DNA from: a virus
IMG/VR virus record: IMGVR_UViG_3300030117_001886
Coordinates: 16,251 to 80,250 of that record
DNA length: 64,000 nucleotides
Direction: 5' to 3' (one strand)
In this document: piece after piece, positions 13,304 to 28,950 of the stretch
Position numbering within the stretch: position 1 is the stretch's first letter
How the letters are laid out: each line of letters starts with the position of its first letter
Made by a program: the position numbers and the translations under genes
Notes under the pieces: model-generated
The model's input: only the letters and a program-made list of their open reading frames with translations
What the model was told of the DNA's origin: nothing
Databases searched by the model: none

Positions 13304-13684
13304 TTAAGCCCTAGAAATGATGTTACGCATTTTTCCGTTAATCACTTTTGCTTCAACTTCTACTTGTTGATTGGTTAAACTGATACCTTGTAGAATATCG
13401 TTTTCCCATTCTTCAAGATTCAATGTTCCCTCTTGTATTAAAGTTTTATCTCCAAAGTTTACATTGAATTTACCTAAGTTTAGAATAAATTCTCCTTTGT
13501 CTGTTTTAACACAGATAGTTTTAAAAGGTCGTACTCCACCTACCAAAGTAGCATTGTATGTTCCCTCGTCTAGTTTTGATTCACTAGAACCTCCAGCAAT
13601 TACTGAAGCGTTTGGATTTAGTTCTTGCATTTGCATAGCTTTTTTGTAAGCTACCATTTCTGCTGTTTCTGTTAATGTTGCCAT
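13304..13684 (-). CDS. Hypothetical protein, first gene of leftward arm
   Basis: 126-aa ORF with its own terminator. Confidence 0.7.
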   Translation of the reverse strand: MATLTETAEMVAYKKAMQMQELNPNASVIAGGSSESKLDEGTYNATLVGGVRPFKTICVKTDKGEFILNLGKFNVNFGDKTLIQEGTLNLEEWENDILQGISLTNQQVEVEAKVINGKMRNIISRA

Positions 13685-13719
13685 AACGATTTAATAAATT
13701 AAGTTAATAAAATTTGTGT

Positions 13720-13830
13720 GTACTTGGGCAAAATGGGGTGTACCCCATGCACCAAGACCCACAGGGGCTACATTATGGGGAGGTCTGCGCACTCAAAAAT
13801 TTTCCAAAAATTTTTTTTATTTTATTTTTT
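13720..13830. other. Strand-switch region with GC-rich inverted repeats (candidate origin/terminus/packaging site)
   Basis: ATGGGGT-GT-ACCCCAT nested in CTTGG...CCAAG, then A/T tracts; located where coding strands diverge. Confidence 0.35.
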
Positions 13831-13833
13831 ATA

Positions 13834-13841
13834 TATATTTG
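13834..13841 (+). promoter_or_regulatory. Bacteroidota -7 promoter element (TATATTTG)
   Basis: TATATTTGCAC immediately before ATG 13845. Confidence 0.55.
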
Positions 13842-13844
13842 CAC

Positions 13845-13973
13845 ATGACCTTCAAAGAAATATTGAGAAACTGTAAACGAAAATTAATAGATGGCGACAA
13901 GAAATACATTTACAAGAGTAGACACACCGAAGAAAAAAAGACCAGGGATACATGCAAAAAGCAAAACAAGTAA
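13845..13973 (+). CDS. Small basic hypothetical protein (42 aa)
   Basis: In-frame ATG inside track ORF 13716..13973, directly after a promoter motif. Confidence 0.4.
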   Translation: MTFKEILRNCKRKLIDGDKKYIYKSRHTEEKKTRDTCKKQNK

Positions 13974-14037
13974 GCTTACAAGTTCTAAGAACTACCGCAA
14001 AAAGTACAAAGGTCAAGGAAGATAAGAATAATTTGTG

Positions 14038-14045
14038 TATATTTG
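14038..14045 (+). promoter_or_regulatory. Bacteroidota -7 promoter element (TATATTTG)
   Basis: Exact motif about 6 nt upstream of the structured region, with no start codon following. Confidence 0.6.
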
Positions 14046-14050
14046 CACAA

Positions 14051-14389
14051 GCAGAGGCATTCCTTAATAGGAATATCACCCCTGAGGACCGAAAGGGCAG
14101 TAGGGGGTCAGACGTGGGATTTATACCTAGTAACATAATAGTAATATGGCCCTAGGCAAATACGCTAGAAAAAACGCTGTGACAGCGAATCATCAGTAGG
14201 AAATTTTCTCCCATAGCCTCGAAAAGGAAAGATATAGAACCTAGTTGGGATAGAATACATATTAGGTAAGTGTGGTGAATTAACACCGTGATAATTATCC
14301 CTTGGTCTTCTCAAAGAAGAAAGCACTGCTAGGTTTGAAATTCTAACCATAATTACAAAACTCCTAGGGGGAACCTATATCTAGACTGC
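14051..14389 (+). ncRNA. Candidate large structured non-coding RNA (~340 nt)
   Basis: About ten mutually compatible nested helices, including long-range ones (see findings); promoter directly upstream; no credible ORF. Confidence 0.6.
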
Positions 14390-14405
14390 ACATATAATTA
14401 TAATT

Positions 14406-14621
14406 ATGGGAAAATCAAAACCAAATAATCCTAGCTTGTGGTCACGAGCAAAAGCTGCGGCCAGAAAGAAGTTTAAGGTGTATCCATCTGCATATGCTAA
14501 TGCGTGGGCATCTAAATGGTACAAATCAAAAGGTGGCACATGGCGAGGAGCTGACAATAGAGTAAAGAAATCTATGAAAGGTGGATTTACTATGGAGAAA
14601 GGACCTGCTAAATTAGACTAA
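14406..14621 (+). CDS. Small basic protein (KFKVYPSAYANAW type), probable virion-internal DNA-binding
   Basis: Lys-rich; motif recalled from marine phage small proteins; ends with a KKSMKGGF motif. Confidence 0.65.
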   Translation: MGKSKPNNPSLWSRAKAAARKKFKVYPSAYANAWASKWYKSKGGTWRGADNRVKKSMKGGFTMEKGPAKLD

Positions 14622-14623
14622 TC

Positions 14624-14893
14624 ATGGCAAAAGGCGGATTAGGTAAATGGTTTGGTGAGAAATGGGTAGACGTAAAGACAGGTAAACCTTGTGGTAGATC
14701 TGGTAAGAAAGATAAACGTCGTGGATACCCGGCATGTAGACCATCAAAAGTAGCAGGTAGTATATCTAAAAGAGAAGCAGCTAAGAAAACAGGACCAGGA
14801 AGAGTAAACTGGTCAACCACTGCATCTGGTAGAAAGCGTAAAACAAGCAGAGCTATGCAGGGTGGATATAAGACTTTACCAAAACTTTATTAA
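14624..14893 (+). CDS. Small basic protein (KWFxEKWVDVKTGKPCGR type; DUF5872-like, unverified)
   Basis: Lys/Arg-rich; MAKGG and AMQGG motifs. Confidence 0.65.
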   Translation: MAKGGLGKWFGEKWVDVKTGKPCGRSGKKDKRRGYPACRPSKVAGSISKREAAKKTGPGRVNWSTTASGRKRKTSRAMQGGYKTLPKLY

Positions 14894-16859: not shown

Positions 16860-17114
16860 ATGGATTTTCTAAAAGACATAGAGGACTATCATACTGCAAT
16901 GCAAAATGCTTATCTATTTGTTACAAAAAAGATAACAGTAGATGATGTCTACAGCGATTTGGAATCTGGGGAAGTTACAGAATTTTATTTACCATTTGAT
17001 CCATTAGTAAATGATGGAAGAGATATTGGTACTCTAGATTTACTCATTGAGCATTTTACAGAACTAGAAGAGTATGAAAAATGTCAGGAGTTAGTAAAAA
17101 TAAAAGATTTATAG
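16860..17114 (+). CDS. Hypothetical protein with UVR-like C-terminus
   Basis: 'LIEHFTELEEYEKCQELVKI'; TAGATTTG motif at 16848-16855. Confidence 0.6.
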   Translation: MDFLKDIEDYHTAMQNAYLFVTKKITVDDVYSDLESGEVTEFYLPFDPLVNDGRDIGTLDLLIEHFTELEEYEKCQELVKIKDL

Positions 17115-19069
17115 ATACACATCTATTTAGTCCAGCAGCTAGCCACTTTCTAGAATATGGCTACTATACAAACGCTTTGCCTGGAACTAAGTCATACTAT
17201 GATTATTGGGATTTAGAAAAACAAAGATGTCTGTACGGATATGAGGTTGATAGTGTAAGCATTACTGGCTTTCACTATTTTTATTTAAACTACTGTCGTA
17301 TGGAAAGAGCAGTAGAAGAAATACAACCTGATGGCAGCATGTTAAACAGGCGTGAGAACAGCTTCCCATCTTTCTATGATGGAGATTACGAATACTTTCA
17401 TGCAGTAGATCAAGCAAGAAAAGAAGATAAACATTTAGCAGTACTAAAAGCTAGACGTAAAGGATTCTCATACAAGGCTGCAGCTATGTTAGTAAGAAAC
17501 TATTATTTTCAAAGAGGTAGTAGAGGTTATGTATTTGCTAGTCAGAAAGAATATCTGATCGGTGATGGCCTGTTATCAAAGGCCTGGGACATCATATCAT
17601 TTGTAGATGATAATACAGCATGGACACAACCACGTCTTAGAGACCGTGAGATGCACAAACAGTCAGGCTATAAAAAGAATATAAACGGTGCACTAGTTGA
17701 GCTTGGTATGAAGGCTCAGATAATAGGCGTATCATTGAAAGACGATCCCGACAAGGTTCGTGGTAAGGCGGGTGATCTAGTTTTCTTTGAGGAAGCTGGG
17801 TCATTCCCTGGCCTTTTGAAAGCTTGGGAGGTAGCTATGCCAACAATGCGTCAAGGTAGCAAGACCTTGGGTACAATGATAGCATTTGGTACAGGTGGTG
17901 CTGAAGGTTCTGACTTTCATGCATTGGAAGAATTATTCTATAGTCCAGATGCATACGATTGTTTAGCGTTTGAGAATATATGGGATGATGGTGCACAGGG
18001 TAGTACATGTGGTTACTTTGTACCTATATATCAGAACTTAGAAGGATTTATAGATAAGGATGGTAACTCTGATATACAGTCTGCAAAAGCATACGAAATG
18101 GATCAAAGGGAGAAGAAAAAATTAGCAGCTGATACAAAAACATTTGATCAATATATAGCTGAACATCCTATGAATCCAGGTGAGGCAACTCTACAGATTA
18201 CAGCAAATCTGTTTGATGTATCATCACTGCAAGCTCAGTATAATACAGTAAAAGTTAACAACCTGACTTCCAAGGCAATACCAGGAAGACTGCATTATGG
18301 TAAGGGGGAGACTATAAAATTTACACCGGACTACACACTAAAACCTATATTTAAGTTCCCACATAACAAGACTGATAACAACGCAGGTTGTGTAACTATG
18401 TGGGAAGCTCCATATAAAGATAAGAAAGGAGTAGTGCCTCATAATTTATATATTATTGGGCATGACCCTTATGGACAAAACAGGTCAGCAGATTCTACAT
18501 CACTTGGATCTGCATATGTACTTAAGAGAGTAAATAATCTATCACAACCAGATGATATACTTGTAGCTAGTTATGTAGGTAGACCTGAAACTCAAGATGA
18601 ATTTAATCGTAACTTATTTATGTTGGCTGATTATTACAATGCCAGGATAGGATTTGAGAATGATCGTGGTGAAGTTATAGCATACGCAAAACGACATAGA
18701 AAGTTACACAGATTGCAGCCAGAGTTTGAAATGCTAGATAAAAAAGAGTTACAATCTAGACGTGTAAGACGTAGTTATGGCATGCATATGACCCAAGCTA
18801 GAAAGCAGCAAGGTGAGATATATATAAGAGACTGGCTAAATTCAGCACGAGGGGTTGAAAGTGAAGGCAAAGAATCGTTAAATTTGCATAAGATCTATGA
18901 CCCAGCACTGTTGCAAGAATTAATTAAATTTAATCATAAAGGTAACTTTGACCGAGTTATGTCTCTTATGATAGCAATGTACCATTCCAGAGAGTTGTAC
19001 AATGCTGAAGTAAAGAATATATATGAAGATAGATCTACGGATGATTTCTTCAATAGACAAATGTTTTAA
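17081..19069 (+). CDS. terL: Terminase large subunit
   Basis: 'LKARRKGFSY' (Walker A-like), 'VFFEEAG' (Walker B), 'FGTGG', nuclease 'IIGHDPY', 'GNFDRVMS'; crAss-like type. Confidence 0.92.
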   Translation: MSGVSKNKRFIDTHLFSPAASHFLEYGYYTNALPGTKSYYDYWDLEKQRCLYGYEVDSVSITGFHYFYLNYCRMERAVEEIQPDGSMLNRRENSFPSFYDGDYEYFHAVDQARKEDKHLAVLKARRKGFSYKAAAMLVRNYYFQRGSRGYVFASQKEYLIGDGLLSKAWDIISFVDDNTAWTQPRLRDREMHKQSGYKKNINGALVELGMKAQIIGVSLKDDPDKVRGKAGDLVFFEEAGSFPGLLKAWEVAMPTMRQGSKTLGTMIAFGTGGAEGSDFHALEELFYSPDAYDCLAFENIWDDGAQGSTCGYFVPIYQNLEGFIDKDGNSDIQSAKAYEMDQREKKKLAADTKTFDQYIAEHPMNPGEATLQITANLFDVSSLQAQYNTVKVNNLTSKAIPGRLHYGKGETIKFTPDYTLKPIFKFPHNKTDNNAGCVTMWEAPYKDKKGVVPHNLYIIGHDPYGQNRSADSTSLGSAYVLKRVNNLSQPDDILVASYVGRPETQDEFNRNLFMLADYYNARIGFENDRGEVIAYAKRHRKLHRLQPEFEMLDKKELQSRRVRRSYGMHMTQARKQQGEIYIRDWLNSARGVESEGKESLNLHKIYDPALLQELIKFNHKGNFDRVMSLMIAMYHSRELYNAEVKNIYEDRSTDDFFNRQMF

Positions 19070-19072
19070 TAT

Positions 19073-21310
19073 ATGTACGCAGCAAATCATAGTATACCCA
19101 AACAAAAACTTGCAGATTCTAAAAAGAATGACAAGTGGGGAAAAGAATGCGTAGAAGCTTTTATAGGCTTATCAAATACAAATGGATATGGTAACCGCAA
19201 GAGTAAACTACAGCAACTGTATGACTATTATAATGGTCACGTAGAGGAAGAAGATTATAAATACGTAACAAAACCTTACGGTAAAAGCCGTAGTAACTTT
19301 CCTTCCAAAATACGTAATTATCCTATTATCAAACCCATCATAGATCTTTTATTAGGAGAAAAATCTAAACGACCTCTTAATTACAGTGTTGTAGTTAAAA
19401 ATGCGGATACCGTGTCTATTAAAGAGGAGGCTAAGAAAGCTACTCTAATGCAGGTTATGCAACAAAAATTTATCAACCGTCTTAATCAGATGGGAATGCA
19501 AACTGGTATGCCCACAGAAGAGGTACAGATGCCAAAGCAAGTAGCAGAATTATTTGAAAAGAGTTATGTAGATGCTAGAGCAATCATGGGTCAGCAGGCT
19601 GTAAACTATATTATGCAAGAACAAGAGATGTATGATAAGTTTCAGAAAGCTTGGTTTCATTTCTTAGTATCAGGTGAGTGCTACACACATAGAGGGGTAA
19701 GACATAATGAACCATTTTACGAGGTACTAAATCCTGTAGATATTGACTATGATAAAGATCCTGACTGTGAGTTTGTGGAAGATGGAGACTGGGCATTGAT
19801 TCGTAAATATGCACATGCATCTACAATCGTAGATATGTTTAGAGAAGAACTTACAGATGCTCAGATAGACAGATTAGAGAGACCTGAAGAGTTTTCTAAT
19901 GATGCACACTTAAGTCAAGGTTATTCTATGCATAATGTAGAAATGTACAGAAGCAGACTTATTGAGGTAAATACTGTTTACTGGAAGTCAATGAAACAGG
20001 TTGGATTCTTAACATACCCAAATCCTATTACAGGAGAAATGGAAGAGCAGGTAGTAGAAGGAAAAACAAAACTTACAGATGAACTAAAAGAGGCAGGTGC
20101 TAAGATTTCATATGAATGGGTAACAGAAGTGTGGCAAGGTACAAAGATTGCTGATGATATGTACGTAGATGTTCGTCCAGTAGAAAATCAAAGATTTACA
20201 CTTGACAACCCATCAAACGGTAAGCTACCAATCAATGGTAGAAAGTATTCTGAAATAAACTCAGAGAATATATCACTTGTAGGATTAGGTATTCCTTACC
20301 AAATAAATTACAATATCTACAAGTACAGATTAGAAATTGCTATTGCAAAATCAAAAGATATTATTGCACAGTTTGACATCAACATGATTCCTAAAAAGTG
20401 GGACATGGATAAGTTTATGTACTATGTTGATGCAACTGGTATTGCATGGGTAGACTATAACAAAGAAGGTATGCAGCTGAATCCTCAACATCAAGCTGTA
20501 ATGGACATGTCTATCAAAACTATAGAACAGTATGTTGTATTACTAGAATCTATCATACAAGAATGGGAAAGAATCTCAGGAGTAAATAGACAAAGACAGG
20601 GTAGTATTGGAACATATGCAGGTAAAGGAACAAGTCAGCAAGCTATTGTACAATCTTCACACATTACAGAAGATATGTTCCGTAAATTTGCTAGACTAGA
20701 GCAAAGAGATATACAAGCTATTTTAGATTATTCTAAAGATGCTTGGAATGGTAGTAAGAGTGCAATGTTTTATATGCCTGACGGAACATCTGAGTTCTTT
20801 AGCATTGATGGTACTGACTACTCTGAAACTAACTATGGTATATTTGCTAGTAACTCAGCTTCTGATATTGAGAAGAAAATGAAGGTAGAGCAACTAGCAC
20901 AAGCTATGATACAGAATGGTACACCAGCATCTATTGTAGCAGAAGCTATAGATCAAGAAAGCTTTACAGCTATCAAAGATAAGATTAGAGCTGCTGAGAA
21001 AGCACAGCAAGAATTGCAACAAGCACAGCAGCAAGCTCAGATGGAGATGCAAGAAAAACAAATCCAAGCAGCTAATCAACAAAAAGCAATGGAGATGGAC
21101 AACTCTGAGAAGAACAGACAGACTCAGATTGAAGTTGCACTAATCAATGCAGAAGCAAATCAAGAACTAAAACGTCAAGAGTTAGAACTTAAAGCTCAAG
21201 AGCTAAAAGATAAAGCTGACAATATGGATGACAAGATTAGACTTGAAGAGAAAAGAATAAATTCACAAGAACGAGTAGCAAAGGATAGCAAACGAAATGC
21301 CTCTAAATAA
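19073..21310 (+). CDS. Portal protein
   Basis: 745 aa after terL; 'NYPIIKPIIDLLLGE', 'ISGVNRQRQG', Gln-rich coiled-coil C-terminus. Confidence 0.88.
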   Translation: MYAANHSIPKQKLADSKKNDKWGKECVEAFIGLSNTNGYGNRKSKLQQLYDYYNGHVEEEDYKYVTKPYGKSRSNFPSKIRNYPIIKPIIDLLLGEKSKRPLNYSVVVKNADTVSIKEEAKKATLMQVMQQKFINRLNQMGMQTGMPTEEVQMPKQVAELFEKSYVDARAIMGQQAVNYIMQEQEMYDKFQKAWFHFLVSGECYTHRGVRHNEPFYEVLNPVDIDYDKDPDCEFVEDGDWALIRKYAHASTIVDMFREELTDAQIDRLERPEEFSNDAHLSQGYSMHNVEMYRSRLIEVNTVYWKSMKQVGFLTYPNPITGEMEEQVVEGKTKLTDELKEAGAKISYEWVTEVWQGTKIADDMYVDVRPVENQRFTLDNPSNGKLPINGRKYSEINSENISLVGLGIPYQINYNIYKYRLEIAIAKSKDIIAQFDINMIPKKWDMDKFMYYVDATGIAWVDYNKEGMQLNPQHQAVMDMSIKTIEQYVVLLESIIQEWERISGVNRQRQGSIGTYAGKGTSQQAIVQSSHITEDMFRKFARLEQRDIQAILDYSKDAWNGSKSAMFYMPDGTSEFFSIDGTDYSETNYGIFASNSASDIEKKMKVEQLAQAMIQNGTPASIVAEAIDQESFTAIKDKIRAAEKAQQELQQAQQQAQMEMQEKQIQAANQQKAMEMDNSEKNRQTQIEVALINAEANQELKRQELELKAQELKDKADNMDDKIRLEEKRINSQERVAKDSKRNASK

Positions 21311-28904: not shown

Positions 28905-28916
28905 TCATTAACTTTA

Positions 28917-28950
28917 TTCATCCCCTGAAATATGGGGATGAATTTTTTTT
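28917..28950 (+). terminator. Rho-independent terminator
   Basis: TTCATCCCC-TGAAATAT-GGGGATGAA-TTTTTTTT. Confidence 0.85.

Follow-up and report, generated by a model that had tools for sequence, protein, structure and literature searches.

A two-domain structured RNA at the head of the virion arm defines a family widespread in uncultured marine crAss-like phages

The locus and its neighbouring genes

In this study we show that a gene for a two-domain structured RNA of about 335 nt lies at positions 14050 to 14383 (+ strand) of a viral DNA stretch of 64,000 nucleotides, the whole of which is here called the window, and that this segment is neither protein-coding nor a signal acting at the level of DNA only. 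The source genome is an 80-kb IMG/VR virus (IMGVR_UViG_3300030117_001886) with a crAss-like layout, which carries one copy of the RNA and whose best terL matches among 50,697 phage records are crAss-like phages with an identity of 43% or less. Leftward genes stop at 13684 and rightward genes extend from 13891 to the window end at 64 kb; GC skew and gene strand both switch at about 14 kb, all later genes lying on the + strand. The RNA shares its strand with the virion arm of more than 50 kb and lies ahead of it, with terL (17081-19069) and the portal gene (19073-21310) following about 3 kb downstream. Alignments place the limits of the whole RNA at 14050 and 14383, where the conserved block ends with ...CCTATATCTA.

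Directly in front of the RNA stands a Bacteroidota-type -7 promoter element, TATATTTG (14038-14045, +). This element had been pointed out in the initial annotation, and an equivalent TAnnTTTG precedes the first helix (H1) in most homologues: in 77 of 112 unique ones (67 of 96 in an earlier set) the distance from its end to H1 is 3-10 nt. Hence transcription seems to start at the foot of the fold, in the window at about 14049-14051. At the head of the rightward arm there are three TAnnTTTGCA promoter elements (13834, 14038 and 14925). The next open reading frame follows the RNA with no terminator-like site found between them in the window. In the homologues a terminator is usually absent as well, a T-run following the 3' tail in only 5 of 50, and in 19 of 50 a new promoter stands no more than 110 nt past the RNA. 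Inside the late arm we noted a strong intrinsic-terminator-like hairpin at 28916-28943 (+), with a 10-bp stem followed by a T-run, through which a polymerase coming from the head of the arm would need to read. Terminator-like sites are not clearly enriched in the late arm as a whole (12 observed against 8.2 ± 2.2 expected).

No conserved open reading frame was found between the second promoter (14038) and the ATG at 14406, and close relatives differ in this stretch by indels of -2, -58 and +8 nt; since these are not multiples of three, the stretch is non-coding, as had been proposed from the sequence at the outset. A protein-coding reading was considered and rejected: a 67-aa frame (13952-14155, +) exists only in the nearest long-form relatives, runs across the promoter and, in other relatives, is interrupted by an indel of 2 nt. 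Between the window and its sister clade the core of the RNA (14231-14340) is about 97% identical, the neighbouring proteins 61-91%. The RNA had also been described as richer in GC than its surroundings. This is true of 14050-14250 (0.43-0.45) when compared with the A/T-rich intergenic DNA upstream (0.22-0.36 at 13750-14050) and with the RNA's own 3' part (0.35-0.37 at 14200-14450), but not in comparison with the coding DNA past 14450, which has an equal GC content (0.39-0.45). A second conserved non-coding element, at 13700-13800, lies in the gap from which the early and late arms diverge. It has a GC content of 0.46, contains the hairpin GGGGTGTACCCC and an AGACC...GGTCT pairing, and is retained with substitutions in the sister clade (L001/L002).

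The gene that ends just before the RNA, p44 (13891-14025, +), encodes a very basic, Lys/Arg-rich protein of 44 aa. A p44-like gene lies directly upstream of the RNA in 49 of 201 copies, and a gene for a small acidic Cys-rich protein ending in CxxCGS takes this place in 35 of 201; in some copies the RNA begins a few bases past the stop codon of one or the other. The adjacency to small basic proteins stressed in the initial annotation is thus real but not universal. In many phages the RNA comes straight after the end of a p44 homologue, which makes p44 a possible protein partner. When a p44 profile was compared with the PDB, all 13 matches were to the ribosomal protein eL29, weakly (best E 0.011) and over the N-terminal 22-34 residues, and a comparison with Pfam Ribosomal_L29e matched one of 12 members, marginally (E 0.31). 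A frame overlapping p44 (13845-13973) begins with MTFKEIL, an N-terminus shared with the CxxCGS proteins of relatives, and looks like the remnant of a CxxCGS gene.

Downstream of the RNA all neighbours are on its strand, yet the gene that follows it directly varies (DUF5872, GroES-like, membrane proteins). A GroES-like gene is present in 63 copies and is followed by conserved pre-terminase genes. In the window the first two open reading frames after the RNA (14406-14893, +) correspond to the N-terminal half (14406-14621, 71 aa) and the C-terminal half (14624-14893, 89 aa) of a DUF5872 protein. In Flavobacterium phage immuto (NC_055915, L352:2607-3077) DUF5872 is one full-length gene directly after the p44 homologue, and the RNA motif is absent between the two.

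Fold of the two domains

The comparative evidence for the fold is decisive, covariation being very strong in both domains. A structure of 57 pairs, evaluated on 21 full-length sequences, had 98.2% of its cells paired and 29 pairs changed on both sides, against 34-46% paired cells and 3-7 such pairs in controls with partners slid by 1-3 columns. As MAFFT misaligns H1 and H2 across sub-families, model-guided alignments were used instead, with one covariance model for each domain (R1 for domain 1, R2 for domain 2). R1 has 110 positions and matched each of 100 sources exactly once, without exception on the terL strand; in the window it matches 14053-14222 (+) with 88.3 bits (E 1.8e-20). The 87 distinct sequences of domain 1 have 98.2% of their cells paired; compensatory changes occur at 20 of the 28 pairs, a position taking as many as five pair types, and the covariation score is 0.66 compared with 0.07-0.09 in slid controls. 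R2 matches the window at 14224-14351 with 126.4 bits; its alignment is 96.1% paired, with compensatory changes at 22 of the 33 pairs, and in 26 of 60 sources its match directly adjoins domain 1. Folding energy by itself does not stand out (z = -1.62 for the + strand, -1.25 for the - strand), and we dropped it as evidence for this reason. Of the checks named in the initial annotation, covariation in homologues carried the case and folding energy did not.

Domain 1 (14053-14222, +) is the universal core of the family and forms a four-way junction of helices H1 to H4. It is closed by H1 (14054-58 with 14216-20), which occurs in at least 15 different complementary versions in the family. H2 (14059-63 with 14070-74) is missing in one sub-family; H3 (14078-83 with 14103-08) is capped by CC-GAAA-GG (14089-96), and the GNRA loop is conserved in the RNA. 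A junction CAGAC (14109-13) leads to H4 (14114-19 with 14209-14). The unpaired ATCA, GAGG and CAGAM hardly vary, and neither does the 3' side of H4. G-U pairs are common; at one position of H4, 82 of 87 sequences have such a pair. Together with the strand-specific matches this identifies the + strand RNA as the functional form, in agreement with the original reading of the G-U pairs. H4 encloses a lineage-specific expansion (14120-14208), supported by covariation among nine long-form sequences, with the stems CCTAG 14126-30/CTAGG 14152-56 and CGCTG 14175-79/CAGCG 14183-87; most relatives have a single hairpin of about 20 nt instead.

Domain 2 (14224-14351, +), delimited by R2 and covariation, consists of P6 (14226-27 and 14230-32 with 14342-44 and 14347-48), H7 (14237-44 with 14329-36), H8 (14247-53 with 14295-301), H9 (14257-60 with 14270-73), H10 (14274-77 with 14284-87) and H11 (14308-10 with 14319-21). 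Other sub-families have a different domain 2, yet retain the 3' tail motif AAGGGG-N-GTRTAYC, which in the window is AGGGGG-N-CTATATCTA (14366-14383, +).

Twelve helices had been drawn from the single sequence in the initial annotation, and nine are supported by compensatory changes: ATTCC/GGAAT, CCCCT/GGGGG with its CC-GAAA-GG cap and GTGGGA/TCCCAT in domain 1, the two lineage-specific stems inside H4, and AACCTAG/CTAGGTT, GGGATAG/TTATCCC, GGTG/CACC and TCTTC/GAAGA in domain 2. One was wrong: the proposed hairpin CCT-CGAAA-AGG (14217-27) does not form because GCCTC at 14216-20 closes domain 1 with GAGGC at 14054-58, where all five pairs covary. An outer closing helix GCAG/CTGC is not conserved past the nearest relatives. 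A third, GATATAG (14231-37) with CTATATC (14375-81), is compatible as a long-range or pseudoknot helix, with 96% of cells paired but no compensatory change in the window's own sub-family; one lineage elsewhere has GACATA and TGTGTC, a compensatory version. This pairing partly competes with the covarying helix 14226-32/14342-48, in which four of five pairs are compensatory and which, like the closing helix of domain 1, had been missed before. With two compact domains and more than 40 covarying pairs, the RNA is a ready target for structural work.

Distribution and identity of the family

The RNA family is widespread in uncultured marine crAss-like phages, occurring in hundreds of them in the ocean. 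In loci collected by way of terL relatives, nhmmer found about 40 matches, every one on the terL strand, the full-length ones sitting 2.7-3.4 kb upstream of terL, and the relatives that bear the RNA include phages with a terL identity of only about 70%. A scan with the core motif found it, among the matches listed, in more than 116 viral and more than 119 metagenome contigs. These listed matches comprise about 200 distinct copies and come mostly from Tara and other marine samples, with one from the human gut. The sequencing runs listed for the sequence are DNA runs from marine metagenomes. Neither blastn nor megablast gave a match in 50,697 phage records, and R1 had no match in Cellulophaga phage phi14:2 or Bacteroides phage crAss001. 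Phage phi14:2, a cultured marine crAss-like phage, has a gene-free gap of about 700 nt (L376, 1278-1984), in which two former ORF calls have been withdrawn and R1 likewise found no match. In human gut material, R1 confirmed a member with 70.9 bits on a phage-like 94-kb contig binned as Acholeplasmatales (L358; G126:C129), where the RNA adjoins a tRNA cluster; hence the family is not purely marine. Another human gut metagenome sequence (L400) matched by sequence motif alone.

The motif was also found in 11 genome contigs, 10 of which R1 confirms, and several of these copies lie within large Bacteroidota chromosomes. A match in a Thalassovita genome was rejected as a false positive in a tRNA region (17.9 bits). 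Two copies each are present in a 2.3-Mb Polaribacter MAG and in a Flavobacteriaceae MAG. Under strict filters R1 found no copy in 120 further Flavobacteriaceae genomes, the one positive among 121 being the seed genome itself, which makes the family accessory and not core. The chromosomal loci (L371-L375) have a common order: a tyrosine integrase (Arm-DNA-bind_5 and Phage_int_SAM_5), the RNA, and genes on the same strand, namely basic proteins of 64-73 aa followed by an HTH_17 (excisionase/AlpA-type) protein or an AAA_25 ATPase. The carriers look like small integrative elements, possibly satellite-like, and may be satellites of crAss-like phages. The integrase-bearing copies hint that, in Bacteroidota, phages and satellites or islands exchange a regulatory RNA.

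The family and its fold are new and in no RNA catalogue. Rfam 15, with 4227 models including riboswitches, ribozymes, RNase P, tmRNA, 6S, group I and II introns, GOLLD, ROOL, HEARO and pRNA, gave no match at gathering thresholds anywhere in the window. With E up to 10, the interval 13650-14450 returned noise of 15-21 bits against thresholds of 60-100, and the divergent homologue L194 returned nothing; the bacterial loci gave tRNAs and nothing else. ARAGORN reported no tRNA or tmRNA gene in the window. These searches agree with the original observation that the hallmarks of tRNA, tmRNA, RNase P, SRP and a hammerhead core are lacking. In the literature, a description of the family was not found; its short fragments may be among the 8,495 unnamed 'DNAVirus_X' candidate RNAs of 29-151 nt predicted from IMG/VR (PMC10690425). 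A group I intron was considered and rejected, as most copies are immediately preceded by a promoter and not by an exon, the flanks are not the same from one relative to the next, and Intron_gpI does not match. Resemblances to group I R/S elements, cobalamin-riboswitch boxes, RNase P P13-like hairpins and the sarcin-ricin loop were dropped because no Rfam model scored and the order or orientation of the elements differs. The proposal of a large, ornate, promoter-driven phage RNA of an undescribed class is thus borne out by the size of the family, the covariation in two domains, the strand specificity and the outcome of the Rfam search.

Possible function and known systems

CrAss-like phages are among the most abundant phages known. 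To our knowledge, the expression of their virion arm of about 50 kb by the host polymerase is poorly understood, and an abundant RNA of about 300 nt, deeply conserved and standing at the very start of this arm, offers a concrete handle on their late expression. It might be possible, and we would give this reading a probability of roughly 0.38, that the RNA acts in cis during transcription and keeps the host RNA polymerase reading through the virion arm. The TAnnTTTG promoter of host type would start the RNA at the foot of H1, and the invariant junction nucleotides of the nascent RNA would bind the host transcription elongation complex. The complex might then become resistant to termination throughout the long late operon, a form of RNA-based processive antitermination like that of conAn2 or put, which is the nearest functional precedent. 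In such a system p44 may serve as a processivity helper comparable to ConAn1, and integrative elements, which have the RNA in front of operons of their own, would proceed in the same way.

Several observations point towards antitermination. The promoter keeps a fixed distance from H1 in most copies. All downstream neighbours are co-oriented with the RNA, the + strand operon of the window reaching to 64 kb. A terminator was found neither before the next open reading frame nor, apart from the T-runs in 5 of 50, behind the homologues, while the hairpin at 28916-28943 lies inside the arm. The same invariant junction nucleotides in phages with terL identities of about 70% or less and in chromosomal elements suggest a conserved host partner. 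A p44-like gene ending just before the RNA gives a conAn-like order in 49 of 201 copies, and in bacteria the RNA lies between an integrase and same-strand HTH_17 or AAA_25 genes. Other observations argue against it. With a fresh promoter after the RNA in 19 of 50 homologues, the downstream genes need not depend on the RNA. The variable downstream gene recalls a movable cassette, which is more typical of a gene for a trans-acting RNA. In size and elaboration the RNA goes well past put and EAR, and it is conserved to a much higher degree than conAn2. Many loci with the RNA have no p44, phage immuto has p44 and no RNA, and terminator-like sites show no clear enrichment in the late arm.

These last points lead to the main rival, a stable RNA acting in trans as a particle with p44 and perhaps the CxxCGS protein, or bound to a host machine such as the ribosome. 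On this account the RNA would be cut from the late transcript and might speculatively have a role in translation, assembly or packaging. The roles in an RNP, in packaging or in regulation that the initial annotation had suggested are speculative as well. It would explain the cassette, which mostly has its own promoter and elsewhere directly follows the stop codon of a p44-like or CxxCGS gene, and the changing gene behind it; the Lys/Arg-rich p44 with its uniform PDB matches to eL29, the ornate fold with conserved GNRA loop and invariant junctions, and the position about 3 kb upstream of terL and portal would fit as well. Yet many RNA loci, and the bacterial copies too, lack both protein genes, immuto pairs p44 with DUF5872 without any RNA, the eL29 likeness is marginal, and we identified neither a signal for the RNA's 3' end nor a processing site. 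We regard a trans-acting particle as somewhat less likely than antitermination. Its size and intricate structure, its restriction to phages and mobile elements, the invariance of its junctions, its sporadic occurrence in bacteria (1 of 121 Flavobacteriaceae) and the two copies in some genomes would also suit a ribozyme that needs no protein, or a self-assembling RNA of the GOLLD/ROOL kind, serving for example in anti-defence. This is a likeness of kind only, no GOLLD, ROOL or ribozyme model of Rfam matches and no cleavage-site signature was identified, which leaves it improbable.

Even less credible is an element of replication, which could be an RNA serving as primer or origin in the manner of ColE1 RNA II, or else an origin of single-stranded DNA that is strand-specific. 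The RNA sits exactly at the switch of GC skew and strand, adjoins an integrase and an AAA_25 replication-type ATPase in the integrative elements and has a conserved G-run near its 3' end, and single-stranded DNA would tolerate G-T pairs too. However, most copies have their promoter at a set place, the foot of H1, as one would expect of a defined RNA, transcription points away from the early/replication arm, and the skew switch is confounded with gene orientation. Lowest of all we place a riboswitch-like sensor of a metabolite or ion controlling the genes just downstream, which we consider very improbable. Domain 1 is of aptamer size (110 nt), a junction with invariant unpaired nucleotides in 5' leader position, but the downstream gene is not conserved, neither a terminator nor an expression platform sequestering a start codon is present, a second conserved domain follows, and no Rfam riboswitch matches. 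Taken together, the position, the co-orientation, the few terminators, the invariant unpaired nucleotides and the recurrence in unrelated mobile elements suggest that the RNA engages a conserved host machine during or shortly after its synthesis. We put forward, tentatively, that an undescribed class of large RNA might reprogram such a machine, most likely an RNA polymerase made proof against termination, and that it could be common to a major group of marine crAss-like phages and to small integrative, possibly satellite-like, Bacteroidota elements, which may have copied it from the phages.

Some features of the RNA have been seen in other systems. Like the pRNA of phi29 it is structured and encoded by a phage, its place in the window being about 3 kb ahead of terL and portal; it differs in that no Rfam model matches, that ring-forming loop-loop complementarity is not evident and that some members of the family belong to integrative elements, which have no packaging genes near the RNA. 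GOLLD (RF01998) and ROOL (RF03087) are large ornate RNAs, often carried by phages, whose function was unknown at discovery. Our RNA resembles them in its intricate fold, large size and association with phages and mobile elements, but their models do not match, and it is smaller, fixed at the head of the virion arm and often accompanied by small protein genes. The put RNA of HK022 and EAR of Bacillus, processive antiterminators that consist of RNA alone, are, likewise, promoter-proximal structured RNAs, thought to bind the elongating polymerase, and are much smaller than conAn2 (PMC8191782); the phage RNA, with about 280-340 nt in two domains and no Rfam match, differs from these small elements. 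A parallel in layout is the bipartite conAn system of pLS20-type conjugative elements, in which a small protein gene and then an RNA region of 260-600 bp head a conjugation operon of more than 30 kb, the RNA conferring antitermination and the ConAn1 protein processivity (PMC8191782). The window has the same arrangement, with p44 at 13891-14025, the RNA at 14050-14383 and + strand genes to 64 kb, that is, a small gene and then a structured RNA heading a long same-strand operon of a mobile element. In both systems a promoter is possible inside or after the RNA region, and conAn acts on the host RNA polymerase. The likeness is one of layout: conAn belongs to Gram-positive hosts, conAn2 regions are mutually just 30-40% identical (PMC8191782) in contrast to the invariant core of the phage RNA, and ConAn1, with about 80-170 aa, is presumably unrelated to the 44-aa p44. 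If antitermination were indeed the function of the RNA in crAss-like phages, it would be a kind of mechanism for which put, EAR and conAn2 already provide the precedent.
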